A stretch of 60,082 nucleotides of DNA, counting the filler, from Bipalium vagum (lineage: Eukaryota): NCBI GenBank assembly GCA_037834085.1. It is 3 parts of 3 records of this genome, joined end to end, with 100 filler letters (N's around TTAATTAATTAA, not from the genome) between each part and the next. Parts side by side here need not be neighbours in the genome. Positions count along the whole stretch, not along the records: positions 1 to 27,261 come from JBBMKC010098064.1; 2 more parts are not named here. The stretch is one strand, 5' to 3'. Each line of letters starts with the position of its first letter. Position 1 is the stretch's first letter. Both the position numbers and the translations under genes were made by a program. Positions 8,621 through 54,238 of this stretch are shown here, in pieces. Below the pieces are notes generated by a model, which did not search any database, was not told where the DNA came from, and worked only from the letters and a program-made list of their open reading frames with translations.

Positions 8621-11102
8621 ATTTTGTTAAGGTTTAAGATCTTTTTTTTACTGTCATTTTAGGTTTTCATTAAAGACATTCATTTCATTTATTAGTGACT
8701 AAATCTATTTCTATTAATCTACGAACCATTTCCTGTATATCATCACTTATTCGAAGCTAAAAATATCATTAATTATTTTGCGCCTTTCCCTAACGAATTG
8801 TGTTCTGTTATCTTATGTTTGCATTGTTGAACAGTTTTCTATTTACTTATTGTTTTCCGCTTCTGCAATTGGTATGCGTTATCTGGGTTCGTTTGCTTTG
8901 ATTTTGACAGATATATAATTAATTTCAAATCTCTTAAAATTTATATTTTCTACAAACACTGATCCATGTTTCTCCAAATATTTCAATATACATTATGAAC
9001 CATGTCACTTACTGTTTTTCCATTAATGATGTCTCAGATCTCCTCAAGACTTTCCTCGTACCTTCAGATTGTATATCAATCAGTAGGAATTATAAATTTG
9101 AAGGTTTGAAAGTGATAAGGTGAGTTTTCGAATTAATAATAATAATTGGAATAATTATAATCAATTTTTCACCAATAAAAATGTTTTACGTTAATGATAA
9201 ACTAAATCAATGAAATTAACCACGTGTCTAACAAAAAATATAATTGTTTACATTCACTCATATCATGGTTATATACATTAGTGTACAACGGTAAGTGACC
9301 TTCACCACATAAAGTTACTCTCACAAAATGAAAAAGTTATCGGTTTATATTATATCAATCCGTTTAGGATCACAACTGATACCAGTTCGGCATTGAATAT
9401 ATAACATTAATATTAATTTCAGGATTTCTCTCAACATTTAAACAAGAAAACATCATTAATTGAAAATCCTAATAATCGCGCCATAAGGCTTGAGGCACAG
9501 ATGCGCATTTCGTTGTAACTAGTTGACTGGAGTTCCCATAATTACCAGATAAAGATGTAATATGGATTAGTTGAATATAATGCTTGTAAAAAGCCAGTAA
9601 TCACCATTTTGTTACATACCCGTGATGTAATCCGACAATAATTTGGAACATTAATTAAATTTATACTTTTATTACATAATAAAGGATTCCTTCGGAAATG
9701 ACAACGAATCATCATCGTAATTATGATTATTATGTACATCACCAAAAATATTAAAATTAAATGAAATTGGTTAATTAAAAATAATTAATCACACTGATTG
9801 ATTATGTCTCCTTTGGTTTTATTACTTTCAGTTTAATAATATTTTGAGATCTTTGCTGGAGATATACTGGTTGAAATTAATGAACAATCAAAAGGAGAAA
9901 CAAGCTACCATGGACAGGATAGGAATTGCAAAAATCATCTTTCTATACATATATTTTTTATTTTTCAACTTTTATTGATCATTCTTCTTTTTCTTAAGTT
10001 GATGTTGCAGCAAAAGCAAACAAATCCCCACCCAATATAGACTCAAAAAAGACTTTCGCCTTGAAAAACCCTTTCATCACTTTAACTAACATACAAGACA
10101 ATGACACAGGTGATTTAAAACAAGTCTCTGGAAGATAATAAAAAATAATCTTTTAAAGAAGCATTCAAGAAATCTCCTCCCAAACATGATTTTACTTAAA
10201 TTTCGATAATATTATTTATTATTAAATAAAGGCAATGATTTTTATCTTATTTTTCCAAAGGAAACATAATTAAATTAAACTAAATTGTTTACAAAAACCC
10301 ACGATAAAAATAGATTTAAATTAATAAAATTGATTTAGTCCTCCTGTTTTTTTCATTCATTAAGAAAATTGGAAATCATTTTAATATTTTTTTTTGGTAA
10401 AAAATCTTTTAATAATTCATTAAAAAAAATAAAAAGATTAATTAAAAATTGTAAAATTGATTTTCTTGAAAATAATTAAACAAAAAACATAAATTTATTT
10501 AATATCGTCCCCTGTGACCGCCAGTTTTGGTTTCCTTCAAACAAATTAAATTAACGATAAGATCAATAATGTAAAAAGAGTGGAGAAAACAAAAATCAAT
10601 GGGAAACCAACATAAAAATCAAGACAATTAATAATTTATTCCACACATCATTGTAAGGCAACAAAATTCATTTATTTCTGCCATTTATATACAAATAATA
10701 ATTATAATAACAAAAACCAAAAATTATATCTAACACAATAATAAGATTACTCAAATTCAAATAGGATACCCGGATGAAAATAATTAAAGATGAGATAATA
10801 TATAAACAATATACCCTTCCTAGATCCAGCAATTGGTTGTACCCTGTCAAAGAGAAGATCTCGAGGTTGCATCTGTAAGCATACACCCTGTTTGCCAAAT
10901 ACAAAACCCTTATGTAAAGTAAGTAATCACTCGATTAAACACTATCGAAAAAAAATCAATCTAGGGTAGCAGCCAAATAAAAGGTTTAGTAAAAATCGAT
11001 GATCTATCAAAACTAACACAAAATTAATAATAATAATAATAAATAATAATAATAGCAACAATCCAGAAAACAACCCAAATACAATACGACGTGATACAAC
11101 GT

Positions 11103-11893
11103 TTATGCCGAGTACATGTTTCCAATGGTGTAGACCGGTTGCTGTTGAGATGACATCGGATTGGTGTTGGCCAAGTATGGAGCATTGGATGACGATGAGA
11201 TGGACGACGTGTTCTGTGATGGTTGATAAACTTGACTAGATTGATTAGGAGAGTAAGAATTGGCGGAGATACCACTTATGGAGAACGGAGGAACCATGTG
11301 TGGATTGCCAGGATTGTTGGCTAGAGTGGAAATGGTGTCTGTCACACTGGTCGGTGGCGGCGGCGACGGCGTTGTATCGGAATCGTATGGAACGTTTTGA
11401 TTGTTGTGAGACAGACAAGTGTGGTGTGAGCATGGATGATCGATTTCTGTGCTACTGGGAGTGGTATTCGACTGCGGCAGATACTGACTGTGGCCGGCAT
11501 AATTGTAGTTCATTACTGCTGGAGTGTAACCGGCGGCAAATGCCGGATAATTAGAACCATACGATGAAGGATCAGAAGTTGGATTTGTAGAATATGATAC
11601 GTTAACGTTGGCTGGAATATTTTGACTATGCATATTCTTTGAACTGACTGTCGTTGTCGTTGGAAGCATATGTTGACGAGCCGTGGAGACGTTTCGAGAT
11701 CCCGAAGAGCTTCCATTAGCGCTGGACGTATTGGTTGTTGTAATTGTAGTGCCTCTCCCAGCTCGATTTTTGAAACTCGAATCTTGTCGCAGTTTACGGC
11801 GTATTAGACAAAATAAGATTGTTCCAAAGCATATAATGAATACGGCTATTGGTCCAGTGATATAAAGTGGAAAATTACTACCTTCTCTTGTTT
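11103..11893 (-). CDS. FGFRL1: FGFRL terminal exon: TM helix and ~230-aa cytoplasmic tail
   Basis: tgttcag|(E)TREGSNFPLYITGPIAVFIICFGTILFCLIRRK... open through ORF 11103-11669 to ...YTIGNMYSA*. Confidence 0.85.
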
Positions 11894-14800: not shown

Positions 14801-16253
14801 TTTCTTACCTCCAGATTTCAAAGAAACGTGCACAATTTTCATCACTAAATAACTAGATTTCGAAAGCACTGAACAAACGTAAGTTCCAGCGTCTGATTTT
14901 CCAATGTTTTCAACCTTTAAGGTGTTCTCGTAAAAAGAGGCCTCCTTGATATTTCCTTCATTATTTTTATGTTCAATATCCAATGATCCTTGTAGAAATT
15001 TGTAGTTATTTTCTTCCCATTTGACAAGTCCAGTTGCTTCATCCGCTTCTTTTTTATCAAGCCTCTTTCCCCACTTAATTCAAAAAATCCACAGGATAAA
15101 TACATTTAATAAAAAGATTATTGTCATTTTTTATTTTTTATTAATTTTTATATTTTGTTTTATTATATTACAAACCAAATTATATTTTTAACTTATGATT
15201 GTCATATTACCGACTTTAATGTAGTGAAGCACTAAAAAATAATAAAATATTTTGATCCGAACACCCTTTACTTTTTGATCGGACAGTAAGAGAATATCAA
15301 AATTTAGTTAAAATACCATTTAAACAAAATATTTTATTTTCTCAAATTTAATTGGTTAGTTCTTAATTACAATTTCTTATAGATTATTTATATTTAATTT
15401 ATAGATTATTTATATATTTTTATTTTATAGATTATTTAACGTATATGAATTTGAATAAAAATAAACAAATAAATAACCAAATAAAGTAAGAAAAATAATA
15501 ATCATAATCAATTAAACACTTTAATATAAAAAAGAACAAAACAGGAAAAAATTAAAGAATTAAAGCGCTCACTAATTATACAAAAAACTCGGAAAATTTA
15601 TTTCGTTTTAACTGGAAACAAAGTTTATTAGAGCTGTTGTAAAATTTCCTCGAAAATTTCTTAAACTCTTTTGGCATTGTACAACAAAATTTGACAGCCC
15701 CCCCACATTTGAAGGCAGAGCAGACATTAAAAAGTTAGACATAACAAAGGCAACTACTTATCTCTCAAGTGATAAGGCCTATTTTCACAAAAGATAAAAG
15801 ACGAGCCTGGTATTAATGGGAAATGAATATCGATGATGAATATTTTACTCAGTAAAATGAAATTTTTACTCAATAAATCTACTCCGAATCCCTGGCATTT
15901 GTTTCTTTGAAATGTTTCGCCCTACCAACGGTGGCCGTCGTTAATTCAATTGGGCAACGCAGTGATGCAGCTGCATTTGTTGTCTAATATTAATTATAAA
16001 ATAGATTATTTTGTTCAACTGTTAATGGATCCTGAGTGAAATATTGGCAATTTAATTAGTTCCTCCTAGCCAAGAAAAGTGACAAACTCTAAGATTTCCT
16101 ATACACAGATATATATAGTTATGATTTAATAAATTATTTTCCCAATATCCCAAACACTCTCCAATAATTGATTTCCATTTTTAAATAAAAATTTGTCACC
16201 TACGAGTTTCCGAGGGAAAAAATTATTTTTACTCAAATGTGTATAACAATAAT

Positions 16254-16293
<40 letters not shown>

Positions 16294-19200
16294 TTATATA
16301 CTTTTGGTTTCGTCAAAGAATTGAATGCTTTACAAGAAAATGTGTGAGTGCTTCCGAGAGTGACTGTAACGTTCTCTAACAGAGATCCTTCAATGACCGT
16401 CATGGACTTGACCTCTAGAACAACAGAAACGAGTTTTAAATCAGATTTCTTTTTAAAATAAATTGGTGAGTGTATTATTCTAAATAATATGAAATATTAT
16501 CATATGATTGTAATAATTATAATGTGACCCAAATTTTGTCCAAAAATATTCGATAACCACCCTTATTAGATACTAATCACTCTTTATGTCTTTATTATTA
16601 TTATTGTAAACGGTGACGATGGTGAAGACGAGGTAGCGGTGGTGATTTTATTTTCAAGGAATCTGGTTACTTAATAAAGCCTTTGAATAGTATGATGACA
16701 AATACCTTGCATATTAACAATGGGTTGGCCATATCCGATATCCGTCTGTGGCTGAATTCGAAATGGTTTGAGCCTATTTATGATAATATAAACAAAACAC
16801 GTTAGTAAAGAATCATTTCGTCCTGATTTTAGATATCAAAATAACATCAAGTCATAGTTGAAAAGTTCTTTTTTTCTACAGACGACTTGAAAATGATCCT
16901 TTATTAAGATACCCTTGAGTTTTTGATTTACAAAAGTTAATGAGAACAATCATCAAATCAATTCGCAATGATGATTATTGTGTAATTATTGTAAAATGTG
17001 TCACAAGTTAAGACCTCTCACCTTTAACTCTAAGACGGTAGTTTCGACTGAGTGTAACCGAAGGACTGGAAGCAGTGCAAATGTAAATTCCTTCCATATC
17101 TTTAGTAACTTTTTCAAACATCACAACTGAATTCCATGAAGACATGTCATTATAGTTGGAAGGTTCGATTTTTTCACCAATAAATAGCTTGTTGTTTATT
17201 GTTGTAGTTGGGGGATTTCTGTCCTTATTCATGCCCAATGGTAATGGCTGAAAAGAATCTGTGGTGGGAATTTTTCTCCAGCTGTAAGTGACGGGGGATT
17301 TTCCATTATCGGTTGTGTTCATAATAGTTCGACAGTCAAATATCACCTTTTTTCCTTCATCTATTTCATAGTAGAAATTGTTATCGGTACTGGAGACCAG
17401 AAAACATGGTCCTGAAAAAGAAGAAGTGGAATTGGAAACAAACACTCAATTTATAAATAAAAAATAAAGAGACAATATCAGTGTTTACAAAACGGTTCAT
17501 GTGGTACATAAGATACCAAGCGGTTGATATGGTTCTGAAGTACATGATATATACATGGATGCATTATTATGAAAAGCTGTTAATTCAGATTCCTACAAAA
17601 ATCAATTTTTATGAGTGATCAATTTAAAAACTCCATTAATGACCAATGGACTGAGTCTAGGAATAATATGCTGTTAAGTTTTAAATGAGTGATTTAATGA
17701 ATAACATTTATTATTTCATAAGCCACCAAAAAACCAAGAATTTTAAATTTTATTATTTATATTTGTCACATTTATAATATTTTATTAATGTTATCTTTCT
17801 TTTCATTCAATTTTAATTGGAAAATGAGACTAGAAATTTGGATGACCAAAAACATAAAATTCCCATTTATGTGATATGATTTTAAACAATGAGAGACTGT
17901 CACCTATCGCATACCTAACAAAATGTGATGTGCTTAGTGATATTGTAATTAGTAATAGTCAATGCAGTGGATAGTTTCAACGACACAAGTATGGAAATGT
18001 AGATCTAAAAGATGATCACGCTAAGCAAGAATGGAGTGATCGATATATGAAATATTTTCGGTCATTGTAAAACTTGGTAAGTTAAATTTGTTCATTTTCT
18101 GATCACAATTTTCAAAAAAGTAACATTGTAATTTTTCTTTTATGATTTTTCTTATTTTTGTTCAGTTATCGTTTGTCATTGTTCACTTCATCAATTTCAT
18201 TCTATCCGTTGTAATGAAAATATTTTCCTTTTTTATAATATCCAAAAATGAAAGTCGCGTATTTGTATTAGAGTAATCAATTTCTTTTATAAACAGATGA
18301 AAGGGAAAGTTCTCATTTATGTTTGGGTTGAATGTTTTCATTAACAATTGCGTCTCTTCTGTACAATGGTGTTCTATGAGACAAAGGATGAAACAAAATA
18401 TTCAGTAAAATAGAGCCCGAAAAATTCCGAAAATGCTTTGAAACGAATTATTATTCTTCATATTTAGAATAAAAGAATTCAGAAATTGAAAAGTCATCTG
18501 GCTTATAGTTTATTTGAAAGTAATTATCAAATTATCTATTATTAATTTATCATAAATAAAAGTATAATAACCAATTAAAATTAAATCAGTTTTTATTTTA
18601 TTATAAAATAAAAATTCACATTATTAATATTTAAAATAATTAAATAAAGTTTACATTAGTTTCATAAATAAATAGTAACAATTATAAAATAAAATATAAA
18701 AAATATAAATAAATTAATATATTTTTCAAAAATAAATAATAATATATTTTTTAAAAAATTAAATAAATTTATAATATATTTTTCAAAAATAAATGTTAAT
18801 AATTATAAAATATAAATAAATAATAAATATCAAATATAATTTGTCTCAAAAAATGAAGTATTTATTCATTTTTATAAAAGAAAAATTGAATAATCAGCTG
18901 GAAAATTGCGGGAGGAAATACTTCCTATATTAATATTATAAATATCTTTCTTTATTTTACAAGTACTATTAAAACACATTTATAATTATTGCTCGAAATC
19001 AGAAAAAGGCATGAAAATTAAAAAATATTTGTTAAGATGATACATTATAAAACAATAAAATCAAATAATGCAACTTCTTAATCCCAATAAAGAATAAATT
19101 CGATCGTTAATGTCAGCCCAAATACAAATAAAGAAGTTTAGTGAATAATGCCTTTTCAACTCTCAAATAAACGCTTTTTGGAAAAGAATTCTGAAAAAAA

Positions 19201-20455
19201 ATCTTCTCAATTATCTTCAAATGATATCACATTCATACTTTTTTAAAATAAATTTTCATTCTGATTGGATAAAAAGTTTGTTATAAACATTTCTAAAAAT
19301 TATAACTTTTTGTTCAAAAAATTAAATCATTTTTTTAATTAAAAAAATTAATATTTAGAAAAAACATTAAACAAATTAAGCATAAAGAGTTATAGTTTTA
19401 AGATTTTTTGAATAAAAGAAATTGTATTTTTGAAAATTTTTATCCAATAAAAATGAAGTTAAATTTATGAAAAAAATATAAAATGTGATATCATTGGGTA
19501 ATAAAATTGACTGAAGAGGATCTGAACTAAAAGATCGAAATATGTTTCAAAATTTTATTATAATGAATAAAGTTTATACTTTGAGAATTTCTTCAAAAAT
19601 AAATAAATAAAAATATAAAATTTCTGAAATAATATATTATATTTTGAGTTTTCTTAATAAAAATTGGCTTCAAAAAGGTATCTCAGTATGAAGAACAGAT
19701 CAAATCTTATATATAAAAACTGAATATTAATGCTATCATTAATATAGTAGAGCAAAAATCCCAGTTCTAAAATTTATAATTTCGTCCAGCTTCCCTTCAG
19801 ACTAACATTTTATCATCAATGTCGACCATAAATATTAATTGTAAATTATTATTTCTGGTTTACAGGAAATGATGGCCATCATGGGAATACTAATCTGGTC
19901 TGATATGAAAATTGAAATATGTATGACATAGTAACCAATGTCACATTATCATTCCTTTAGTTATCAACCACATTAGAATCGGATTTAAAAAAAGAAACGA
20001 GGAAAATAAAAGTGAAAAAGACAGGAAAGAATCACAATTTTTGGATAAGAGAATTTCAAAATTCCAGAAAATCCAGAATCAGAGATTACAAAAATTCACT
20101 TACCGGCCTTATTGGCTTTACAGTCTACATCAAAATGCTTCGAGTTGACATCTGAAGATTAAGAAAATTAGAAGGTTTAATATTATTATTATGTGGCTCA
20201 TACCAATGCCTTTGGTAATAAAGGTTGCTGTTCTCTTTCCGTATCCATTAACAGCTTCGCATTCGTAAATCTCTGGAATTGTATCGGAAGTGATTTTGAT
20301 CTGGTGAGTTTTTGACTCTGCCAGTGCATGGCTTGCACTCTTAAGATTGTTCCATTTATAAAAATCAACCTCCGTAAATGGGCATGTAAGATTGACTTTT
20401 TTATTGACCTCCATCAAGAAATATTGCTTGAGATCCCCAACTTGAACAGGTGGAC
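11103..20455 (-). CDS. FGFRL1: FGFR-like 1 / nou-darake (ndk/ndl) family receptor, 5'-partial; join(20455-20204,20151-20104,17411-17022,16414-16302,15073-14809,11893-11103), ~620 aa without the signal exon
   Basis: Six exons with AG/GT boundaries and consistent phases (1-1,1-1,1-1,1-0,0-1,1-stop). Three Ig domains (LTCP...YECEAVNGYG; FDCR...W...EGIYICTAS; ENVTVTLGSTHTFSCK...DAGTYVC), TM LYITGPIAVFIICFGTILFCLI then RRK, and a low-complexity tail with no kinase domain. Which ndk/ndl paralogue it is cannot be decided here. Confidence 0.85.
12019..12607 (+). mobile_element. internally deleted mariner in FGFRL intron, same family as 4110-4666
   Basis: Shares tttcgtatttcatttgtcagctta..atggaagat and atgggatatgtg..aaact with the 4.1-4.6 kb copy; right TIR caattactttgccaattaaata. 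Confidence 0.75.
13500..14000 (-). mobile_element. decayed Tc1/mariner-superfamily transposase fragment
   Basis: VISGPIY...SWFQK resembles IGPYFF...WFQQDG; boundaries approximate. Confidence 0.4.
14809..15073 (-). CDS. FGFRL1: FGFRL exon, Ig3 C-terminal half
   Basis: attaag|WGKRLDKK...NTLKVENIGKSDAGTYVCSVLS...VSLKSG G|gtaag. Confidence 0.85.
16254..16290. repeat. (TAA)n microsatellite
   Basis: About 12 perfect units next to an FGFRL splice donor. Confidence 0.9.
16302..16414 (-). CDS. FGFRL1: FGFRL exon, Ig3 N-terminal half
   Basis: gttctag|(E)VKSMTVIEGSLLENVTVTLGSTHTFSCKAFNSLTKPK|gtatat; resembles FGFR IgIIIa NxTVxxGxxxxFxCK. Confidence 0.8.
16667..16773 (-). CDS. putative alternative exon of the FGFRL gene, truncating after Ig2
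   Basis: TACTAAC branch point (16807-16801) 28 nt before taaatag acceptor; phase-1 frame GSNHFEFSHRRISDMANPLLICKVFVIILFKGFIK*; internal donor aag|gtattt at 16706/16705. Confidence 0.45.
17022..17411 (-). CDS. FGFRL1: FGFRL exon, Ig2
   Basis: tttttcag|...GPCFLV...VIFDCR...YSWRK...DMEGIYICTASS...YRLRVK G|gtgag; lies within ORF 17008-17445. Confidence 0.88.
19219..19496. mobile_element. AT-rich palindromic foldback/MITE
   Basis: aatgatatcacatt...ttggataaaaa at left versus tttttatccaa...aatgtgatatcatt at right; inner arms also pair (ataactttt/agagttat). Confidence 0.6.
20104..20151 (-). CDS. FGFRL1: FGFRL 48-nt linker exon (DVNSKHFDVDCKANKA)
   Basis: cttcag acceptor, gtaagt donor, phase 1-1, follows a 52-nt intron. 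Confidence 0.75.
20204..20455 (-). CDS. FGFRL1: FGFRL exon, Ig1
   Basis: tttag|GT CCA CCT...; (G)PPVQVGDLKQYFLMEVNKKVNLTCPF...YECEAVNGYGKRTATFITKGI G|gtatga; YxCxAxNGxG is FGFRL1 Ig1-like. Confidence 0.85.
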
Positions 20456-20717
20456 CTAAATTATTAATTGTTTTACTATTGAAGATAATTCATAATTGTA
20501 TTGAATTATTATTTAACACATTGTCGACAGCCAAGCCAATTATCATCTTCATTTGATTTTCACTTGAGCATTCGTTAGGAGGCCGAAATAAAAAATGTTT
20601 AAAATACATGGTTTATGTATAATAGTAATTTGAGAATCTAGAAGTTTTAATTTGTCTAAGTATAAAAAATTGATTATTTGTTTTTATATTGATAAAGGCA
20701 TTTTTATAGGTTTTAGA

Positions 20718-21045
20718 ATGTTAACAACAGAAGAAAGAAATTTTGTTTGTTTGGAATATCATAACAAATAATCAGTATTCCAGGAAAATCTTCTGAAATT
20801 CCAAGAATATCAGCAAAAGTCAATGTTGGGAAAATAAAGTCTTCCAAAAAATTAATTGGTCTCTACAATGTGAAATCAGAAAATTATTTACAGCTGTTCA
20901 AAGATTATTTTGTACGTACCCTTAAAAAGTCATAAAATTCTGAGAAATTCATTTTTTCAAAAAGATGGAGTGTGGCAGTACGTCAATTTCTCAATGAAAT
21001 ATTTCCTCAAATATGGATTGGGCGTGGAGGTTCAATTAGCTGGAT
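20718..21045 (+). mobile_element. deleted rosa/maT-like transposase remnant
   Basis: MLTTEERNFVCLEYH start; FFQKDG...VRQFLNEIFPQIWIGRGGSISW. Confidence 0.7.
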
Positions 21046-22339
21046 ATTATGAATTATGACAGAGAGGAACATTGTTCGTCCCAGACAGCCAACGTGTTAA
21101 TAATCACAAGATTTATGTTTAAACAAATTTCGAAACCAAAAAAATTAGGAAACCAGAACAGTATAAAGTAGTATAAAACTCCAGATAATTTAATTGAAAA
21201 GAATTGGGTTTGAATAAATTATGGCAGTAATAATAATATTATTTTAAGACTCCAAACCTCCCTATAGCTCTCCATCCAAATAAATAGTAAAACAGTATTC
21301 TAGGACTGGCTTATGAGAAGTATGCTATACTTTTCTTTGCTCCCGAGGGAATAAATGTAAATTATTTGTCTCTTAATTAAAGAGAAAAAAATATTAAATC
21401 GAGTCCCAAAGTTGATGTAAAAATTTAAATGTTCATTTTTTCTCAAAATTAAATTTGAGGTATAGACGGGAGGAGCTCATAATTTATGCATATTTTTATG
21501 AGATTATGCCCATTCCCCTTCGTTATCCCATAAGAAGCAATTATGAAAATATTGACAGTGAGAGGATCAGGAATTTTGTAATTATTCATAATTATTGACG
21601 AGCATTATAAATTTACTGCATGGTTTATCAGAATATAAAATATCCCAAAGAATATTTTTAAAATTATTACCAATTATTATTTTATAATCCAATAAATGTC
21701 TTTGGAATAGTTAGGAGTTTGTAAAAAAATTATAAAAAATGATGGCAAAAATATTTCTGCTGATAATTATCGCAGAAATTTAAATAATCGCGATAATTGA
21801 AAATATTAAATAAATGTAATTATGATTTTTCTCATTGGACTGAGTAAACTGTGGAAATCAATTTAATTTGGAAAAGAATAAATGAAGAAATAGTCAGTTG
21901 GCACTGTAAAATTAAAAAAAATCAATGAAATTATAATGGAAAATAAATTAATAATTCGAACGATTTTAATGTTTTCTCACCTTTTAATCTGTTCTTAAAA
22001 ATGTCAATTTTTCTTTAACTTGTGAAGTTAATGAAAAGTTCAAATGCCAATTTTTCATGAAAAAAAATAATTAAGCTCTGAATTGGTTTTAATATATATT
22101 TTAATATCAGAGCCGTTCATATGCATTTTTCGTTTTTTTCGAATTATCTTTGAGTGAGAAATAAAGAAACTGTGTTAAAGTAAATTTAAAAAATATTTCT
22201 AAGCTATGGCATGATGAAAAAATAATTAAAGTATGATTTTTTGCAGAATATTCAACGAATAATCTAAGAGCATCGAATAATACGAAATTCATTTTAAATA
22301 ATAATAATTATTATTGATTAATTTAGATTTTTTTATCTA

Positions 22340-22732
22340 AAGGATGCTTCATAAATATGTGTACGTCTTTAAAACAAAAATAATCAACTAATTTTTAACC
22401 GAATTTATTAATCTTTTTGTACAAAAACTATTCAAATCCAAAATGACTATTAATAAATTTTAGTAATAATATACATGTATTAAAGAAGTTCGGTTGGCAT
22501 TCATTGGACATCGATACATTTCTGTAATCTTGACAATACAGATCTGTTAACTTTCTAACAAAGATCTACTGGAATCAGGATGATTTTTCCATAACGTTTT
22601 CGAAATCATTGGAACAATATAAATATTTTTCTAATGATATATCACAATAATATAAAAAATGAATCATGATCATTGACAAATTGATTAATTTTTATTTGTT
22701 TAATCGCGTATACTTTTTTATGAAACACCCTG
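22340..22732. mobile_element. Tc1/mariner-derived MITE
   Basis: Right end atgaaacaccctg-TA; degenerate left end aaaggatgcttcataaa. Confidence 0.5.
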
Positions 22733-23199
22733 TATGATGATTATCATTTTTAAAACAGAATTTTTTGTTCAAATGAAAAAAAAGTCATAAAGAACATCGA
22801 ATCTCGTGAAAACCGTTTTTCACAATAAATTCAATATTAATGAGAAATAATATTGGAAAAATTAATGATATTTAATACAAGTGGAAATTTCAATATTTTT
22901 TTTAAAAATAAATAAAAATTAACATTCTCAAGATGAAAAATTTATAACAATAAAACAACGAATCATTTCCATAAAAAAATTTAAGAGAATTAATTTTTAT
23001 TTGAGAAATATTATTATTAATAATAATAAATGCAGACTTTTATTGACAATTTTAATAAAAGCTGAAATAACAATTATTTCTGCTGAAATGGCTGTTGTCT
23101 TTATAACGAAAATGCTAATCAACAGTCTAGCATTTAATTCCAGACAAAAGCAAATGGGAGATTAAAGAATTAAGGGTAAAAATCGCTAATTCCACACTT

Positions 23200-23400
23200 G
23201 GTGATGTAATTAAAACACCATTGAAATTTACAATCAACGAAGCGCGTTCAAAGCAGCGAATTGGGAAATCGGTCACTGTCACGGCTCATTCATTGTGAGT
23301 CACAGAATTAAGCTGGTCGCCCAGCGCTTTGGCTGTGACTTATCCGTGGCTTTCCAGTGGGGCGTAGCGTCAAATGCCCCCAATGCATTTAATCTAAAGT
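23200..23400. promoter_or_regulatory. candidate enhancer 5' of the FGFRL Ig1 exon
   Basis: GC/CpG-enriched non-coding block; TTCAAAG 23247, CATTGT 23291, TGAGTCA 23296. Confidence 0.35.
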
Positions 23401-26400
23401 ACTCGACATTTTATTGATTTTATTTAAAGTTTCGGTAATATTATTTCGAAAATTTTATTTTTCCGCAATTTAATCTCAATAAATCTGTCTGATAAATGTT
23501 GTCAACGGGGATTTTCTGTTTCACAAGCCCAGACTTTATATTATGAGTTCAGGACCAATTGTTTCTTATATTTAGTTTTGAGAAATGCTGCTTAAAAAGC
23601 CCCATCGACTGCATCCAAAAACAGTATAAAAATATAAATAATATAACAGTTCATCAACGATGACTAAAAGTCGAGATCGATTTCCAGGAACATGTCATGG
23701 TAATATTTACAAAGAAATGACATTTGCAACGTAATTGATACGGGGATTTTCGTATTACACCAAGTCAGGAATTCCGTGTCTGAAACCGAATCGTTCTATT
23801 ACATAAATAATGATATATTAGGGCCGCTCAAAAAACATGATTTCCTGACTGCTGTCTAAATGACATTGATTATGTTTCCGCTAGCTTTCGGCCACAAAAT
23901 CCACCCACTATTTTCTAATGACGACCGTTTATAATAGAGCAAATCTGATCAAGCTGACTTTGATCTTCAACTTTGAGATTAATCAATGACATTCTGTAAC
24001 AATTGACAGAATTGGAAACCACCAGTTCACTTGTGAAAAGGCGTGCTTTGGAACGATTATTATTAAATTCAATAAAGTTTGACAGCGCAATTATCTTTTG
24101 TTTTATCATTCGATGATGAACCCCGACGATCGACGAAAAAGAAAGGGAAATCATTTTCACGATTTTTGTGAAATTATTTTCCAAGGTTGGAATCTTTACC
24201 GAATGATGCGGATTTATGTGGAGCGTTTTCGAACCGAGGTTCCAGAAAATTTTTATGAAATTACTTTTTTCAACTAAATTATTATTTTCTTTTTTACTCT
24301 TAAGTTTTGAATGGACAGATTGACGGCAAATGTCAGTCTTTCTCCATGATTACACAACAACGGTTATTTCACAACACGTTCCGGTGTCTTTCCGGTTCTT
24401 ATCTTTCATTCAGTAATAAATGACAACTCTTCCTTTCTTGGATATTTATTGATATATAAGAAACGAATAGACCATTTCTCGCATGGACAATCACTGATAG
24501 AGTGAGATTAAGAGACATTACAAAAGGTTCAGTGAGATTCCGCTGCGTATTTCTTGGTTTCGTATGCAAACAAATAAATCAGTACTGCCCATAATTCATT
24601 CTCTAAAATAATAAGCATACTACTTTTACATTGTAACATTTATCAGTCACAAGAAGTACCTTTGTCTAAAAACCGAGGAAATAATACAGAAACTCTGAAT
24701 AGCTTGGTTCTTTTACACAATATCGCTTAAACATTTAAACTATTAAGCAAAGATAAGCATGTTAAACAAAGCCTTCTCAGATCGTGCCAAGGGTCAAAAC
24801 ATGACGTTACACAATCTTCTGAAGAATATCGACTCACAAAGACTTATCTTACATAAGAAATGCCAAGCTGTGGCCACAGATTTCATTTTGCTTCTTACTT
24901 GAAATTTATTTTCTATCTTACAATAATAGAGAGAGTTGATGAGTTCTCTCCACAAGATAAAATGACAATAAGGACTCAATGATAACAACGAATTTCCTGT
25001 AATAGGAAATTTATTTAAGACAGTTTCACTTATGAAACACTTTCAAAATGAAATGATTCGATCATACAGTCATCATTTTAAGTTTATCAATTATACAAGG
25101 ATCCTTCCAATATTAAGTCACGGTTTTTAAAAAAATATGTAAGAAAATCGTGAAAATTCTCCATACGTTGCTTGAAGCCAAAAGAAATATCGTCGATTTT
25201 CCGAAATTATAAGGATTAAGACTCATTTCATTTTATACAAATATACAAAAGGTCACAATAGTCTTCCTGGAAAGAATAGAACCAATAATGGTTGAAACCA
25301 TGTCCAATAATACAGTATTGACGTCTACCATGGAGAGTGGGCCCAAACAAATTGCGAAATCTGTTTTAGGCTATCAAATATAATAATAAAGTAAAAAAGA
25401 TAAATAGTATTTTAACTTTTCATGGATAAAAATACCCAACGGATTTTATATAAATTATCCTCAGCGCACAACCGTCGCGAAAAGTGGAAAAAATAATGAT
25501 TTTATCCCAATTATTATTTTTATGCTATTATGGTTATTATTAAGAGAGGATTCTTATCGAAAATAAATTAAAATTAATTTTAATAAAAATAATAATAATT
25601 ATAATTATAATAATGAGAATAGTAATAATAATAAATTAATAATAATAATTATAATAAAAATTAATAATAATAATTAATAATAAAATTTTTTATTTAACAC
25701 GGAGGCAAAATGACAGGTTCAGTTATCATTCTCGTCATCACTTAAATAATGAAATTGATCTTTTGATAACAATAATAGGGCAAACCTATTTTGGATCCAA
25801 AAACTGTTTGGAATCGATCTCTATCTTACTGATAACAACTGGAGTCCATCGCGGACTATTAAAACAAAAAAATAATTAATAGTTTTCCTGATTTCTTTTA
25901 TCAAAATCGTTAGAAACGGTATTAAAACATTCTTGGTACAAAGAAAATGAAGTATAAGGACTATGCTAGAGTGTTTAATAAAGAGCAGTTTTATAAAAAC
26001 CATAAAACGGTCTAGGATAAATTTTGAGATAAAATATTTATAATTTTTACGAAAAAGATTTTTTTCCAGTGTCAATGTTTGAATAAGTAATCCCCTTACT
26101 AAAAGCAGGAACAAACAATGTGGGATTTTACTTTGGATTCGGGAAACTTAATTTCGATGTTTAGCGAAGGTTCAGCTGGGCCACGACGTAATAAGTTGGA
26201 AAAACGGTGACATTAGATTTTTCATTAATGATGCTGGTACATGGTTCCTTCCTGGTTTTAATGTTGTTATCTAAACAAAAGTATCAGCTCCAATTCTTGA
26301 GCTTGGAGATTTGGAGATCTGTGATCACGGGATGAGACTGTCATGGAAAACCGAAAAAAATATATAGTTTTAATGGGATTTTTCAAAGTCAGAAACCAAA

Positions 26401-27261
26401 TTACGGATTCAACAAAGAAATCGGCGATATGACAATCTTTAACAAAAGAAATGTGAGAGTTCGCATTGCCAAAATGGCCAAAGCATCCTATGAAGAGTGG
26501 AGGGAGGCCTTTGAGAGCGTCCGGTTACTTTACCGATCTTGTAGCTTTTGATTTTCATCTCATCTGATTGCTGCAGGATGATTTATGCAATGTTTCCTTC
26601 AGTAGTCAATTGAAATTGGGAGTGCATTGTTAGTTGAATATTGTTCCCAGCGTGTTGGTGGTATTATATATTAAACAGAATAACTGATTCGTGAAGTCAA
26701 ACACCAGGGAAAAAACAAACGGATATTGGTTATTTTCCAGCTCAACAAACACAATTCGTGAAAGCAAGGAAAGTGAAACTGATTTTTTCTTATTAAGAAG
26801 ATATCACAAACAGTTTAAGTCCTTTTAAGCTCTCAGAAAGACGAAATCAACAAAGACTTCAATGTTTCCAATTATCCAGAATTTTGATAATCAGTCTCAA
26901 GAATATATCTTAATACAGGTTCTAGGGGGTATTGATTAAAGCCATTGAAACTGGGTAATAGGTAGGGAGTCAATTTTTCTCACTTTCATTCAGTCCTACA
27001 GGACGTCTCCTCCTTGCATTTATATCTTTACTCTGGTGCGAGAAATGTTATGTAAAATAAAATGACCCAGTTTAATTGAGAGGTCTTTTCTGGAACTGAT
27101 AAATATATAATCTTAAAAATATATAGAGAAATAAAATTGTCTCCTTATTCTCGTTTTTTCCAATCAATGCTTTTCTTTGAGAATATATACAGGGTGAGCG
27201 AGTAGAATTGGCGCGGAAAATGAATTAATGAAAAACAACTGTAAAAGTTATAATTTTAAAT

Positions 27262-32914: not shown

Positions 32915-34107
32915 CAGTAGTTACCATTAAATTAATGACATACAAAAAATTTTTTTTACGTATAATTGAAAACTAAGCCAAAATAATATACATATAAATA
33001 TTTATTATGCTTAAGTGATATTGGTATCGAATTAATGAAAAGTTAGTGAATTTATATTTATTCGTTTTGCTATTCGTTTCATATAGATTTTGGGTTATAA
33101 ACAAGATTTATGTGATTTCAAAAAAGGTCAGATTGTAGCTCTGAAATCTGAAGGCTTGAAAGCTTGAAAGCATGTCTGATGAAAAATACTAAAAGAAAGA
33201 ATTGCCAACGTGCTCGCAAAACAAGTGCCCGTGATGATTGTTTTTAAAATCCGTAGTTACGGCATGTTCTATGACGTCGTCTGCAAGAATTAGCCAGCTG
33301 GCAAAGGAAAGAGGCATTGACGTAAGTGCACGATCTCTACGTCGACGACTGGTGAAGTATTTTGGTATATTAGCAAGACGTCCAGCAAAAAAACCACTAT
33401 TGACAAAAGCTCAAATAGCTGGAAGAATAAAATTCTGCAAAGAGTTGAAGGACAAACCACCTGAATGGTGGCATCAAGTTATGTTCACAGATGAAAGTAC
33501 GTTCCAACAAGTAAGAAGTACAGGTTAAAATTATGTCAGACGACCATCAGGCCAGCGGTTCAACCCCAAATTTACTATGAAAACTGTTAAGCATCCTCCA
33601 TCTTTGATGGTATGGGGAGGAATAACTGTAAAAGGAACGTTTGGTCTACATATATTCCAAAAAGGCGAGACAATAAATGCTCAAAAATACATAAGCGTCA
33701 TTGATAATAAAGTCAAAAATCACATTACGGGATTGTCCGTAAATGGTTCACTGATAACAGTAAATGTTCTTCAAAATTGGCCATCCAATTCACCGGACCT
33801 AAATGTTATTGAAAACTGCTGGTGTATTATGAAACAAAAGGTTGCTGCCCATCAACCAACCTCTGAAAAGTGTGGAGAACGGATATAACGCCAAATTATT
33901 GTAAAAACTTGGTTGAAAGTATGCCTAGGCTTATACAAGAAATACTTGACAATAAGGGTTATTCTTCTAAATACTGACATTTATCAAAAATAAATGTAAA
34001 TAATGTTGTAAATAAATCCCCTTGTATTACTTGCTCTGAATTTTATATATATTTTTATACTTTATCTTTATTTTTTAATAGTGTCCTTAATTTAATGGCC
34101 ACTACTG
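32915..34107 (+). mobile_element. Tc1-family element, near full length, disrupted transposase
   Basis: TIRs CAGTAGTTACCATTAAATTAA / TTAATTTAATGGCCACTACTG; RRPAKKPLL, VMFTDESTF, TVKHPPSLMVWG, WPSNSPDLNVIENCW; stop at 33526 and internal deletion. Confidence 0.92.
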
Positions 34108-34707: not shown

Positions 34708-37700
34708 CTGAAAGTTTTTCATAGTTAAATATTGTGAAAATTGTTTCAACGATTTTTTAAAAATACCCAAAATTTAAAGAAATTAATACTTATGAAAAAA
34801 ATATTGAGAAACAAACAGAAATGTTACTAATTTCACTGATGCATTAATTTCTTATTCAAATCTTCAAGTGTTCAAAAGATTATTAAGAATTTGGTAAAAT
34901 CTAAAATTAAAGCTGAAAAAACACGATTTAAGTCATAAAAATATTCCTATTATCCTTTATCATTTATATACAAATCTTATAATACTAATCTATGATAACA
35001 ATAAAGTTTGACAATATTTAGTTAAAGTAAAAAGAATAAATAAAATTATTTTCAAAAAGACAAAGAAAAAGTCCATAACAAAATCTCTTCAAATTATTTG
35101 ATAAAAGCAACTGACAGGCCGAGTAAAATTCCGCTTGACAGCCACAACTCTTTAGAAAGCCTTGAGATAAAATATATAGAATGAATTTTGTTGTAGATCT
35201 ACCGTTATTGATTTTTTTCAAAAGGAAATTCAAAATAAACCTAACTCGGGAAGGAATATATCAGAGCAGTAGCAATAAAGTAGATGTACATCAATAAAAT
35301 AAAAGTTTAAAAGAAATAAATCTTAATAAATTTTAAATTTTAAAAAAAAATAATTTATAATATTTTTTAAACTTTTTAATAATATTTTAAATAATTTAAT
35401 GAATATTAAAATAAAATTTTAATTTTATAAAATCTTACAAAGGAAATTATTTTATAAAGAAAATTTTGATTTAACCATATTTAGTCATGTCTTCTACTCT
35501 TCTTTTATAAAGCTTTCAAAAACAAAAGGATCAATGATTCTCTTTTTGCAGTCAAATTTTTAATATTAATTATTGATTATTTATTCATCTGGTATTATAT
35601 GAAATATTAACCTTTTCTTATTTGTTTTCGATTTGAAGCACAATATACATACTTTTAAAACAATATGTCGAAATGTCTTTCGATCCATTATCCAAAGAAT
35701 TCCGGAAGTCTTGGCAACAATTGTTGCTGCACGAGGAGTGTTATACATCAATGCTAATTCTCCGAACGAACCAGAATTTGTATATTCACCAAGTTTGATA
35801 TCATTGACCAAAATATCAAAGATACCTCTGAAGAAAGAAGAAAACCACCAAATATAGAGATGAAATATAGGTTTCTAATCAAACCGAACTTTTCGATAAC
35901 ATAAAAATCATCACCATCATCTCCTTGTTTTATAACGACTTCATCAGGCTCAACTGATATTTCTCGCATAGAATCAATAACTTTACTTCTTTGCTCCTTA
36001 TTTTTGGACGATTAATGCAGGTATATTTTAAAAAAGATAAACATACTTCATCTAAACTTCTAAATAAGAATATTGGCTTAATAGCTTCCACCAGCCGGGA
36101 CCTTTGAACATCGGTTTTAGAATACACGACAGGCTTGTCCTCTTCTTCATCCTCCATTTCTGGATTAAAGCTCTCGGCAGCAACTGTGGAAAAATTAATG
36201 AATATCGATTAACGATTCTTAATCTCATTAAGTCGTCAATTAAGTCTCATAAAATCTTGCTGATCCGAAATTTAGTTTAAAATAATTGAAATGCAAATTT
36301 TGCTAAATCTCAAATCATATTTTCTCAGTAAAAATTGTAAGTATAAATCTTGTTCTAACGAAAATTTGTCTCATTTCACAAGAGGTTTTAACATACTGGG
36401 GATCGGTATATCCTTTTCTTTTTCTTACATGGAAAGAAATTAGAAAAACAAAACTGTTTTGTGTAATTAAAAATATACTAATTTAGAAGTTTAAAAAAAA
36501 AAGAAACTTACCGCTCTGTCGTCTGCCTCTTTGGATTTGCCTTTCTAAATGTTAATAAAAAATAAAAGTATATCATAAAGAAACAGAAATTAAAGAAAAA
36601 CTTAAATTGCGGAAAAGTTTAAATTATGAAATAAATTAATACTTGAAGTTAAAAAATGACATGTCTTTATAAAAGATCTGTTTTATTCAAAGAAAATTGA
36701 TATCTGTGAATACATTTGAAGAAAACATTCCTCGTGATTACCTTTGCTGAAATATCTCGTCTATACTAGAACATCCTTTCTTTCGTATTTCAATAATTTA
36801 TAAAATTTTAATTAATGAAAACTTCATGAAATTACTTTAATTATTATTTAATTATATTATATTAATAAATATTAATCAGAGAACACACTTGCAACCAATT
36901 CATTTTTACTTTCCTTTGCTTGGATATTAATCTCTAGATATCGATGTTTTATTAATAATGATTTTCAAATCTTTCGCTCATCAATATTATCAACATTGCT
37001 TATAATTATTATAAATTCTTCTACATTAACATTGCATTTTTGAGCAATTAATTTTTTGAATGATCTAAGGTTTTACTGGTTCTGCTTAATTGCGGTTGCT
37101 CACTCATTCGCGTTCCGAGGTGACGCTGTGTCTTACTCACAAGAAAGTAATAGAAAAGATTGTAGGTCATGCAGATCTGAAATGAAATTCAATCACAACA
37201 AAAACGAAAAATTATTTTAAAAATAAAATGACAACGCCTGGAATATTGCAAGCTAATATTGTGTACCAATTTGAATGTAATGAGTCTAATGCCTATGCAT
37301 AGGGGATTCAAAGCATCAATGTTCAAAAATTTTTATAAACACAAAATAAATCAAAGCAATTTCAAATTTCTTATGAAATTAAATGAAAATTCTTTTTCTT
37401 TTGGATGGAAATTGATCTACCACCAGAAAAGATATTCCACGCTTTATTTAATTAAAAAAGTTTAATTTCATTTTTATTAATAAAATCAATATATATTAAA
37501 AAATTGATCAATTATAAAACGTCGGCCTAAATCAATTAGACAAAGATAATTGAAAAATATTGACCAAAAGTTTAATTGAAATTTAAAACAGTAAATTATT
37601 TTTTTCTTATCAAAGAATAAAATGTTTTTTTCTTTTGTCTGTCAGAGTTACTGAGAATAAAATTGAATGTAATTTCACTTGCTATTGTGGCGTAGTAAAC

Positions 37701-44994: not shown

Positions 44995-47595
44995 TCATTT
45001 AAAAACAATTGAAAATTCTGTCGTACCATCTGGATGTCCTTGTCTGTATTCTTTCGGTTCATATTTTAACATTGGGACTTTCAAACAGCGCTTACATTTA
45101 AGAAGGACGATTGCAATGGCCAAAATGACGGATACTAACAGAGTGACCGTGATCATACATATCATAACTACTAAGTCTTTCTCAAGAAAGCGATATTCTG
45201 TGAAGGGCTGCGATATCTCCGTTAGAAAGTTGATTCGAACAATGGTGGTGTTAAAAAGGGCAAATTTACCACTATCTGAAACTTTGATAACCATTCTAAT
45301 AGTGTCTGGCGTCGAACTCATCGGATGTTTCACAAGATATAAGGAGCCCGTCTTTTGAGTTAAGCGAAATATCTCTAATTCATTTCCCTGTATAATTTCA
45401 TAGTTCAATGTGGAATTTAATCCCAAATCTGCATCGGTAGCTTTGAAAACGGTAATCAATTTCCCAAGGGTTTCATACCTCGTAACATTGAAAGTGAGTC
45501 CACTGTCAGAATACTCAACCCATTGAGGATAATTGTCATTGACGTCTTCAATTTTTATCACGACATCAACAAAAACACGGTGGCTTAAAGGTCCACTGTC
45601 CCAAGCTTCAATAGAAAATGAATGTAAATCAAATACCTCTCGATCCAGCGATTCTCTTGTCGTGAATATCCGTCCATCTGAAGTGACTGAAAAATAAATT
45701 TTGGCTATATGGCTCTTTTTCTCATACGGTTTTATGACCATTGCATATGAAATTTGTCGGTTTATGCTTTCTACGTCTGCATCATCAGCTGAAACCGATC
45801 CAACATATGTATTGAAGGATGTACCTTCATAGATATGAAATTCGTAAACCAACTTTTTAAAAACCGGAGCACAATCGTTTACATCTTTAATTTTAACCCT
45901 GATTGATGTTACACTTGAAAGTATCTTCTCTGTACTTTCAGAATCCACTATATTTCTTCTATCATAAACGGTCACTTCCAATTTGTGCTCTGCTGTACTT
46001 TCCCTATCAAACACTGCGTTGGTTTTCAGAATTCCGGAAAACTCATCTATGCTGAAATAAACATGATCGCTTTTATAAATTAGCTGTGAATTGATACCTA
46101 TATCACAGTCAGTGGCATTTAGCTTTGCAATGAAGGTCTCAATAGGCAGTCCTTCGTCGATATACACTATGGAGACCGTATTGGAAAACTGAGGAGTACA
46201 GTCGTTCTTATCCAGAACTCTTATATTCAGTAATTTCCTAGACATTTGTTGTGGATAACCGTCATCCTGACAAGTGATAACAACTTGTAAAAACTCATTT
46301 ATTTCCCTATCAAGAGGCTTTGTCAAAAAAATGGTATACTTCGTAATGGCCATTGTTTCAGATTGGATTCGAAGTAGCTTAAAACCATACATGTTACACT
46401 TGCAGGAAATGATAGTGGAACGATTATCAATGTCTTCCGTTGTCAAAGTAGCAATTATCTTTTCTTCCGATATATTTTCTTCAACGAACAAAACATTATT
46501 CGAATTATTTACCAGAGGTAAGATACCTATAGTTGGAGGGTTATCATTCTCGTTTTGAACCTTCACAATAAGAGTTATTTCTGCGACATTTGAACCATCT
46601 GTCACTTGTATTGGTAAATTGAAAATGTTTTGATCAGAATCATAATCCAATACTTGTTTAACGAAAATCTTACCATCTTTGGGATCTATATAAAACTTGG
46701 ATTTTTCTTCGTTACTCATTGAATAGCCAAAGGAATAGGATAATTTATCATGGTCAGAGATATCATTGTCTTTAGCAATAGTTTGACACAGGAATTGATC
46801 TACCGGATTGTTTTCTTTAATATGAGCCTCCAATTGGGGTTTATCGAAATATGGTGGATTATCATTGATATCGGTTATACTTATGATGAGAGATGTGGAT
46901 CCAGATAACGGTGGTGAACCGGAATCTTCTGCTATTAACAAAAGTTCGATTTTATCAATTTTTTCACGGTCAATATCGGATTCCACTTTAAGCAATAATT
47001 GATTCCAGGGTACCTTTTGAGAAATAGAACTATAATCTAAACTGAAAAGTTTCAGTTGAGATCTATTCATATACTCTAATGTATATTTGGAAACAGAATT
47101 CTTTGGTGAGAGATCTGGATCTTTAGCAAGGGGCAAATGATATTTGGAACCGATCTTTGTGTGTTCTGGGATGTTAAGTAGAATTTGCGATTCCGTCCAC
47201 AATGGAGCGTTATCGTTGATATCTTCGATGTCAATGCGAATTTCAAAGTAGTCCAGCTGAAGTTTAAGTCGGTTAATGAGAACTAGTAAATTTAAACAAC
47301 AGCAATGGTTTATTTTTATGCATATCTTTTCTCGATCAATGTTACTTTTAACAACCAGTTTTCCAGAGACAAGGGAAATAAATTTATTTTCTTTCATCAT
47401 TTGAAAATGTATATTTTCTAAGCCGGGAATTAGGGGGTTTTTATGTTTATAGCTTTCTCGAAGATCTCCAATTACCAACCCCAGTTCTGAGTGCTCCTTA
47501 ACTTGAAAGTCTAAAGAAATGGATTCTGTCAGAGTTATGAAGGAATAATGCAGTAGAATTAATGACAAATGTGTAACACTACCAAGAAACTTCAT
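44995..47595 (-). CDS. protocadherin (7 cadherin repeats, delta-1-like architecture); one large exon with signal, ectodomain and TM; probably spliced at GATG|gtacga (45027) to exons outside this contig
   Basis: 866-aa ORF from ATG 47595; signal peptide; repeated DRE, DxD and DxNDNxP motifs (six linkers); TM LVVMICMITVTLLVSVILAIAIVLL then KCKRC. Confidence 0.95.
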   Translation of the reverse strand: MKFLGSVTHLSLILLHYSFITLTESISLDFQVKEHSELGLVIGDLRESYKHKNPLIPGLENIHFQMMKENKFISLVSGKLVVKSNIDREKICIKINHCCCLNLLVLINRLKLQLDYFEIRIDIEDINDNAPLWTESQILLNIPEHTKIGSKYHLPLAKDPDLSPKNSVSKYTLEYMNRSQLKLFSLDYSSISQKVPWNQLLLKVESDIDREKIDKIELLLIAEDSGSPPLSGSTSLIISITDINDNPPYFDKPQLEAHIKENNPVDQFLCQTIAKDNDISDHDKLSYSFGYSMSNEEKSKFYIDPKDGKIFVKQVLDYDSDQNIFNLPIQVTDGSNVAEITLIVKVQNENDNPPTIGILPLVNNSNNVLFVEENISEEKIIATLTTEDIDNRSTIISCKCNMYGFKLLRIQSETMAITKYTIFLTKPLDREINEFLQVVITCQDDGYPQQMSRKLLNIRVLDKNDCTPQFSNTVSIVYIDEGLPIETFIAKLNATDCDIGINSQLIYKSDHVYFSIDEFSGILKTNAVFDRESTAEHKLEVTVYDRRNIVDSESTEKILSSVTSIRVKIKDVNDCAPVFKKLVYEFHIYEGTSFNTYVGSVSADDADVESINRQISYAMVIKPYEKKSHIAKIYFSVTSDGRIFTTRESLDREVFDLHSFSIEAWDSGPLSHRVFVDVVIKIEDVNDNYPQWVEYSDSGLTFNVTRYETLGKLITVFKATDADLGLNSTLNYEIIQGNELEIFRLTQKTGSLYLVKHPMSSTPDTIRMVIKVSDSGKFALFNTTIVRINFLTEISQPFTEYRFLEKDLVVMICMITVTLLVSVILAIAIVLLKCKRCLKVPMLKYEPKEYRQGHPDGTTEFSIVFK

Positions 47596-48589
47596 CAAAC
47601 CAAAGTAATGACATTGAAATTATGTTTTAAAGACATGTTTATTATAAAAAATAATTATCAAACATTTTTTCATATATGATTGGTTATTTATACAACAAAT
47701 GAAATAGAAAAAAATTAAACAATACATTCTCTTGAAAATTAAATAAAAGAAAATAATTTCAAGATTTGTTTTTCCTTAAAAATTGTCTGGGGATAATTTA
47801 TTTATTATCCTTTATAAAAATAATTTCCTCATTTTCCAGGACAATGAAATAGCTATGGAAACATTAATATAATAACGCGAACTATGAAAAATTAATTTCA
47901 TTTTTTATGTGTATTAATTAATTTTAAAATTGTATTATATAAAATTTTTTTTTAATTTTTAGAGTAAAAATTTCTGAGTACACAAGGCTAAGTATTTTTA
48001 AAGCATTTTTTATTATCTTGGAGATTTATTTTTCAAATAATTTCTTTCTTTTAAGAAGAATAAATGTCCCTTTCGTATAGGTCTAATATGATTAAAAACA
48101 ATACCTCAACGGGTTTTGCAAAATCATAATAATAAAAAAGTTTCAAGTTTTTAAAAGAAAAATTACAAATTTACATATAGAGAATAAAAAAATTTAACCA
48201 AATTTTCATCTCTCAATATTACAGTTACACCTTTGTGTACGTAGAACGTCTGGGTTTTGTCCTTTACAGTATGATCAACGTTTTGTTAATCTTTTTCATT
48301 AATGAAAGAAATAAATAATTTTTTGCTGGTACTGCGGCTGCATAATGAAAAAGCTTTGGTACAATGTACTCAGTGATAAGAGGTGGTCTGTTATTGCCGA
48401 GATGAAAAACAATAAATTTTCGGTTAAATCGAATTTGCTTCATTCTAACGAGCTCCTTATAAAATTAGTAGAATAAAGTATACTCTTCCACAAAAAAGTA
48501 CGACAAATTAAAGAAAAAAACAAAAACAAAAAATTTTGAATATATTTTAATTGTTTTTATTTTAAAATATCTGTTATTTAATATTCACT

Positions 48590-53126: not shown

Positions 53127-53128
53127 TA

Positions 53129-54235: not shown

Positions 54236-54238
54236 ATA

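Follow-up and report, generated by a model that had tools for sequence, protein, structure and literature searches.

A predicted, paralog-conserved stop exon inside the third Ig region of an FGFRL-like receptor gene of Bipalium vagum

Comparing a predicted FGFRL-like receptor gene of Bipalium vagum (assembly GCA_037834085.1) with its closest paralog points to a short conserved stop exon at 16031-15990 on the minus strand, which is very likely real. On balance, we favor its use as an alternative last exon that would give a secreted Ig1-Ig2 form of the receptor. All positions refer to the window, meaning the whole stretch of DNA that was analyzed (60,082 nt, filler included). The initial annotation had placed a hidden truncating exon in the intron between the second and third Ig regions, entering at 16773. 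The idea of such an exon is supported by the stop exon, which lies one intron downstream, inside Ig3, whereas the proposed location is not, as it has no counterpart in the paralog; the site at 16773 is probably a cryptic look-alike.

Gene layout and family membership

The gene lies on the minus strand of positions 1-27261 (C98064, JBBMKC010098064.1), with the following exons in order of transcription.

20204-20455, minus strand: predicted Ig1 exon, phase 1 at both ends (from translation and splice sites)
20104-20151, minus strand: Ig1-Ig2 linker ('box') exon, 48 nt (from splice sites)
17022-17411, minus strand: Ig2 exon, with a long loop and two cysteines 85 residues apart
16302-16414, minus strand: Ig3a exon, the opening part of Ig3 including its first cysteine, ending in phase 0
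14809-15073, minus strand: Ig3b exon, the remaining Ig3 from the C-strand tryptophan (from Pfam and paralogs)
11100-11893, minus strand: last exon, with transmembrane helix and Ser/Thr/Pro-rich tail, a 266-codon open frame to the stop

This arrangement of Ig1, box, Ig2, split Ig3 and membrane segment with tail, with phase-1 domain borders, is the one that PMC2754479 describes for lophotrochozoan FGFRL1. As in FGFRL1, ndk and ndl-1 to ndl-5, there are three Ig regions, a single membrane helix and no kinase; the difference is that a sequence match to a named FGFRL1 or ndk protein is absent. Family membership rests on architecture because protein searches and a profile search (1.84 billion representatives) returned generic Ig proteins and no named ndk or FGFRL1. 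A Pfam scan of 4 of the 14 generic Ig matches from the profile search added nothing, and PDB sequence and fold searches confirmed Ig without singling out FGFR, with FGFR2 and FGFR4 present and not at the top.

Evidence for the individual regions is uneven. The assignment of Ig1 is a prediction: the Cys/Trp pattern fits, the region occupies a phase-1 exon by itself, and this exon is 82% identical to its Ig1 counterpart on C203746. A Pfam scan of Ig1 gave no match; C203746 also has an exon of the same length and place as the 48-nt linker. The closest paralog is C118510 (L008), which is 58-62% identical in Ig2, Ig3a and Ig3b and shares the introns. Ig2, whose exon has its 3′ end at 17022 in phase 1, matches Pfam Ig_3 under the cut-off (E 5.9e-5), is 62% identical to this paralog and gives a predicted model with an Ig beta-sandwich (pLDDT 60). 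Ig3a is 58% identical to the paralog (BLASTN E 4e-8), and Ig3b is 60% identical and also matches Pfam Ig_3 under the cut-off (E 5.4e-4). The last exon encodes one hydrophobic segment (hydropathy 2.41 over 19 residues) followed by ~230 low-complexity residues and a stop, and the Pfam scan of this tail found no kinase family. No convincing or paralog-conserved signal-peptide exon was found in 20456-27261, where the contig ends. These features support a kinase-less three-Ig FGFRL-like receptor, likely from a flatworm.

In planarians, patterning of the head and trunk depends on ndk/ndl genes. The initial annotation had labeled the locus nou-darake/FGFRL; the FGFRL-like class is kept on the strength of the architecture, and the choice of nou-darake over another ndl paralog was not confirmed. 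Against ndk proper, the Ig2 cysteine spacing is 85 here and 48 in the distant paralog L021 (hand count), and Ig2 is longer than that of Dugesia Ndk (SMART 161-225, ~65 residues). An exon count that could reach 8, as given for ndk in the consulted part of PMC6114478, fits ndk proper. The best name is therefore ndk/ndl family member, with 'ndk proper' unproven.

Planarians have six ndk/ndl genes according to the family description in PMC4865367, and at least five paralogs are present in the genome. Further ndk/ndl-like gene fragments were seen on C118510, C203746, C70069, C262712, C187406, C255542 and C229583. The window gene, C118510 and C70069 form a long-Ig2 group, in which C70069 is a third Ig2 paralog on a contig of only 270 nt, and a short-Ig2 pair has Ig3b and the membrane helix in one exon. 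The phase-0 position of the Ig3a/Ig3b intron recurs in two distant paralogs, whose introns are just 45-48 nt and thus leave no room for a hidden stop exon. Their Ig3a/Ig3b junctions lie at L021 4928/4977 and L022 3600/3554, with a Cys-to-Trp spacing of 15 residues as compared with 11 for a direct Ig3a-Ig3b join (16302/15073) in the window gene; inclusion of the first 12 nt of the conserved exon, through a weak donor after 16020, would bring the latter to 15.

Other observations concern the remainder of the window and the assembly. At 44995-47619 (minus strand) one exon of 874 codons encodes a cadherin-repeat protein that has a membrane segment and looks protocadherin-like on visual inspection, and a putative regulatory subunit of protein kinase A is suggested by an exon at ~35930-36210 (minus strand). 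Numerous broken remnants of Tc1/mariner-like transposases were noted by eye at ~33200-33900, 51900-55400 and L022 8700-9600. There are 25 COX1 matches, intact and broken (L026-L029 and other contigs), suggestive of several mitochondrial sources or nuclear copies. The best of them has AAA at 5/5 positions where mouse has Asn, which is consistent with the flatworm/echinoderm code and is not proof of a flatworm, since the assembly holds several COX1 copies.

Conservation of the stop exon

The elements of the conserved stop exon and its surroundings are as follows.

15990-16031, minus strand: hidden conserved stop exon, reading DPLTVEQNNLFYN followed by TAA, phase 0, in frame with Ig3a, 13 codons
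L008 2120-2158: counterpart of the stop exon in the paralog, 12 codons followed by TAA
16032-16097, minus strand: conserved intronic block 5′ of the stop exon, with CTAAT at 16059-16055, a pyrimidine tract and a CAG acceptor
15597-15989, minus strand: 3′ UTR predicted for the short isoform, containing AATAAA at 15629 and 15602

BLASTN of the gene against C118510 gave four collinear blocks with E < 0.01, namely three exons and one intronic block. The latter aligns 16097-16022 with L008 2056-2129 at 74% over 77 nt (E 4.9e-7). Both genes retain the CTAAT branch motif, the pyrimidine tract, the CAG, a phase-0 frame that continues Ig3a and the stop. Comparison with the paralog at the DNA level gave a score of 85, against 61 ± 7.6 for shuffles, 2/200 of which reach it. 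The 70 nt upstream of the exon have a similarity score of 53, as compared with 15-28 at five constitutive acceptors. Strong conservation of the upstream intron is a mark of regulated exons, whether of the last-exon or of the poison kind. With splice matrices built from 19 acceptors and 16 donors that we annotated by homology, the stop-exon acceptors score 8.5 (window) and 9.6 (paralog) against a true-site median of 5.9, and the acceptor in the window ranks 6-27 among 242 intronic AGs.

The encoded peptides agree at 7/12 residues, with 4 of these identities kept through synonymous changes, and frame 0 alone is stop-free in both genes. Differences fall on the three codon positions as 4/2/6, alike to the 19/18/43 of Ig3b. 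When 12 differences were placed at random (20,000 trials), an equally good stop-free peptide arose in 0.4% of cases and at least four synonymous changes in 2.5%. Using the acceptor as anchor, on which the strong figures for this exon depend, none of 31,241 intronic positions reached the score of codons 4-12 (3 reached the identity count), and codons 5-12, which lie past the internal GTs of both genes, outscored every one of 31,268 intronic positions. When the introns were compared as protein in six frames with no anchor, the same peptide pair came out best, yet 43/200 shuffles equaled it. Conservation at the amino-acid level suggests translation of the peptide.

The element is known from two genes only; a pattern search built from both paralogs returned those two alone, which is not independent support. 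Contigs from a single run, possibly the one behind the assembly itself, had neither an informative joint nor any differing letter and weigh on neither side. By eye, the peptide (16031-15993) is faintly like a segment close to where Ig3b begins (15073-14990, minus strand), and the stop exon might be what is left of an Ig3b duplicate.

The candidate exon upstream of Ig3a

The exon proposed in the initial annotation lies in the Ig2-Ig3a intron.

16667-16807, minus strand: candidate exon, with branch motif at 16807-16801, acceptors before 16773 and 16751, a donor after 16706 and a stop ending at 16667

Its description was accurate at the level of motifs. A TACTAAC is present exactly at 16807-16801, its branch A lying 28 nt away from the AG that ends at 16774; the 35-codon read-out in the phase of the Ig2 exon and its stop match; AATAAA is found at 16652, 15 nt past the stop; and the donor after 16706 does close a 68-nt cassette with a frameshift stop in the Ig3a exon (16414). 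The weight of these motifs is mixed. The window contains 6 copies of TACTAAC where 6.03 are expected, with 57/100 shuffles reaching 6, and the motif precedes 0/19 of the homology-annotated true acceptors, while the looser CTRAY precedes 4/19. The acceptor at 16774 ranks 171, 91 and 145 of 242 intronic AGs for three matrix widths, with 3/19 true acceptors scoring lower. The donor after 16706 is ninth of 285 intronic GTs, and the inner acceptor at 16751 ranks 4-21 of the 242 AGs.

The combination of motifs is uncommon. Requiring an exact branch point, an AG at 18-40 nt, at least 35 codons and AATAAA within 100 nt, criteria that were picked post hoc, only 2 sites were found in 409,708 strand-bases (a background count that omits contigs L041, L045 and L049, each equal in length to a neighbor), one of them the 16807 site; with AATAAA within 30 nt, the 16807 site was the sole one. 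Allowing a CTRAY branch point raised the counts in the same strand-bases to 13 (within 100 nt) and 4 (within 30 nt), which, scaled to the 7,494 scanned intron bases, amounts to an expectation of ~0.24 and 0.07. The second full site, at 50251-50245 (minus strand), has an exact branch point, AG, 60 open codons, AATAAA and a good donor.

Conservation is where the candidate exon and the stop exon part ways. Against C118510 the Ig2-Ig3a intron is at chance level, with 131/200 shuffles scoring as well for protein and 48/200 for DNA; for the candidate segment alone the figures are 121/200 and 38/200, and none of the four BLASTN blocks falls at the candidate exon. This comparison thus does not confirm conservation of the proposed exon. 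Absence from one old paralog is compatible with a young exon; a shared exon would have been detected. The candidate is a single copy in the genome by DNA search, and DNA searches (common words skipped) for a transposon origin of its intron or of the conserved block found the window itself only.

A real, younger and gene-specific exon is doubtful, be it a poison cassette, a terminal exon whose product ends in a hydrophobic stretch or an in-frame cassette of 117 nt, and would be compatible with the last-exon explanation for 16031-15990. The good donor and inner acceptor and the rarity of the full motif set speak for it, as does a GC content of ~0.35 near the candidate, compared with 0.10-0.25 in the poorest intron stretches. 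The 117-nt cassette (16822-16706, minus strand) is stop-free, phase 1 at both ends, and would lengthen the Ig2-Ig3 linker by 39 residues; codon usage is exon-like over its last 22 codons, in the top 4% of 499 intronic frames, and it has no conservation in the paralog. Besides the missing paralog similarity, the mediocre acceptor, the lack of TACTAAC before true acceptors and the codon use argue against a younger exon, the candidate frame being intron-like at 0.0 versus 0.32-0.41 in known exons withheld from training. Other readings of this DNA are a 46-nt stop cassette, the 117-nt cassette from 16822 and an in-frame passage via 16412. Nothing chooses among these readings, and four incompatible readings that fit about equally are what is expected of a chance site. 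The Ig3a acceptor is itself a tandem TAG-AG (16414 and 16412, minus strand), as in the distant paralog L022 at 3736 (minus strand); the second AG, with a poor score of -4.4, would restore the frame of the 68-nt cassette.

The initial annotation had further suggested a GPI-type tail, and a terminal exon at 16773 giving a GPI-anchored or tail-anchored two-Ig receptor is highly improbable. A GPI signal is a C-terminal uncharged hydrophobic stretch after a small-residue cleavage site. The predicted end reaches a hydropathy of 1.96 in a 19-residue window and of 2.45 in a 15-residue one and is followed by the nearby AATAAA, but it has three lysines among its last 13 residues, a longest uncharged hydrophobic run of 7 and no conservation in the paralog. 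Equally hydrophobic ends occur in 27/398 intronic frames for the 19-residue window and 18/398 for the 15-residue window, because T-rich DNA reads as F, L, I and V. A gene-specific poison cassette, running from 16773 or 16751 to 16706, would be unlikely as well. We regard the exon at 16773 as likely cryptic and at most gene-specific, and doubt that it is used at all; calling it cryptic is a judgement, since its motif set is uncommon.

Possible use of the stop exon and comparison with known systems

An in-frame acceptor, a stop and a poly(A) signal upstream of the membrane exon are present in both paralogs at the DNA level. GC content stays at 0.30-0.40 down to ~15600 and then falls to 0.11-0.26, and AATAAA lies 360 nt past the stop here versus 50 nt in the paralog. 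If the exon is a last exon, the Ig3a donor (after 16302) would pick either its proximal acceptor at 16031 or the Ig3b acceptor (15073), and the unusually conserved upstream intron would likely bind factors that regulate this choice. Polyadenylation of the short mRNA would take place within the intron, near 15600. Its product would comprise Ig1, the linker, Ig2 and the first Ig3 strands with one unpaired cysteine, followed by 13 new residues and no anchor. Given a putative signal peptide, this form would be secreted, lowering full-length receptor and acting extracellularly as a decoy or competitor; as a counterpoint, half an Ig3 with a free cysteine may stay in the ER. In mouse FGFRL1, as described in the sections consulted of PMC12026108, heparan sulfate is bound by Ig2, and the main roles in kidney and fusion belong to Ig3, so competing with the full receptor would be a likelier role for the short form than standing in for it.

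The same DNA could act as a poison cassette, which we consider rather unlikely. A donor after 15926, the best between the stop exon and Ig3b (score 7.1), would close a 106-nt cassette with the stop 64 nt before the next junction, leading to nonsense-mediated decay and dose tuning; the highly conserved upstream intron fits either kind of regulated exon. The 50-nt decay rule comes from mammals and may not be this animal's, and a poison cassette has no need of a synonymous-biased, residue-conserving pattern up to the stop. The paralog has a 10-nt internal donor (score 4.7) that would shift the frame too, but downstream of its stop there is no good donor (best 0.2). A last exon is favored because the paralog lacks this donor and has AATAAA 50 nt on. 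It is quite improbable that the conserved block is instead a microexon or a non-coding element, such as an enhancer or splicing element for Ig3b, with an incidental peptide match. For such a role one may cite that DNA identity peaks upstream of the exon and over its first 10 bases, that conserved non-coding elements are reported at Dugesia ndk in the portion consulted of PMC6114478, and that 12-nt use would restore the Cys-to-Trp spacing of 15 found in distant paralogs. The internal GTs, however, lie 12 nt into the exon in the window (score 0.5) and 10 nt in the paralog, differing in place and phase, and no shared in-frame microexon was found in the Ig3a-Ig3b intron of the two paralogs. The protein-level match of codons 5-12 lies beyond both donors and also counts against a non-coding role.

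Extending the last-exon reading, the exon could be a regulated Ig3 splice switch that a single branch of the flatworm ndk/ndl positional-control receptors kept since an old duplication, from a membrane FGFRL to a secreted Ig1-Ig2 form perhaps dimerised by the orphaned Ig3 cysteine; we put this forward tentatively. If true, FGFRL could signal in diffusible form, in convergence with vertebrate FGFR1-IIIa, and FGFRL genes with narrow muscle-domain expression would have a direct route to long-range tissue patterning. A secreted form encoded by splicing would also offer isoform-specific handles, as RNAi, probes and rescue could address its separate 3′ UTR, and these would let one ask whether FGFRL acts on the producing cell or at range. 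The discussion of FGFRL proteins in PMC4865367 calls their mechanism poorly understood. Literature searches showed no report of a spliced soluble FGFRL in planarians, and figures in PMC6114478 and PMC4865367 may bear on it.

Several known systems resemble the predicted short form in part. FGFR-1(IIIa), as outlined in the available text of PMC7962449 and PMC3825415, is a secreted two-Ig isoform from alternative splicing, in which processing after the first Ig3 half gives a form without an anchor; the equivalent here is predicted. FGFR1 has a kinase, and its soluble form removes signaling, whereas the parent receptor here is already kinase-less.

The vertebrate IIIa/IIIb border lies later in Ig3 than the C-strand tryptophan, and the FGFR1-IIIa end is an intron read-through. 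By comparison, the intron here lies just before that tryptophan, earlier in Ig3, and the predicted end comes from a spliced exon of its own whose codons are conserved. Soluble decoys of VEGFR, EGFR and MET arise by intronic polyadenylation (PMC3775402, citing Vorlova 2011, in the part consulted) and are alike in that an intron preceding the membrane exon carries the stop and the poly(A) signal; those are vertebrate tyrosine kinases, and here the case is a prediction for a kinase-less invertebrate receptor. Lineage-specific alternative exons recur inside the Ig3-coding region of bilaterian FGFRs and are thought to alter ligand affinity, according to the excerpts of PMC5703972, whereas the FGFRL exon here would stop the protein, and homology of intron position is not implied. 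Vertebrate FGFRL1 gains its soluble form by shedding, as related in the consulted text of PMC12026108, in contrast to the dedicated last exon proposed here. Soluble receptors with intronic ends are thus already known in vertebrates, and the FGFRL stop exon predicted from the two paralogs would be a variant on that theme.
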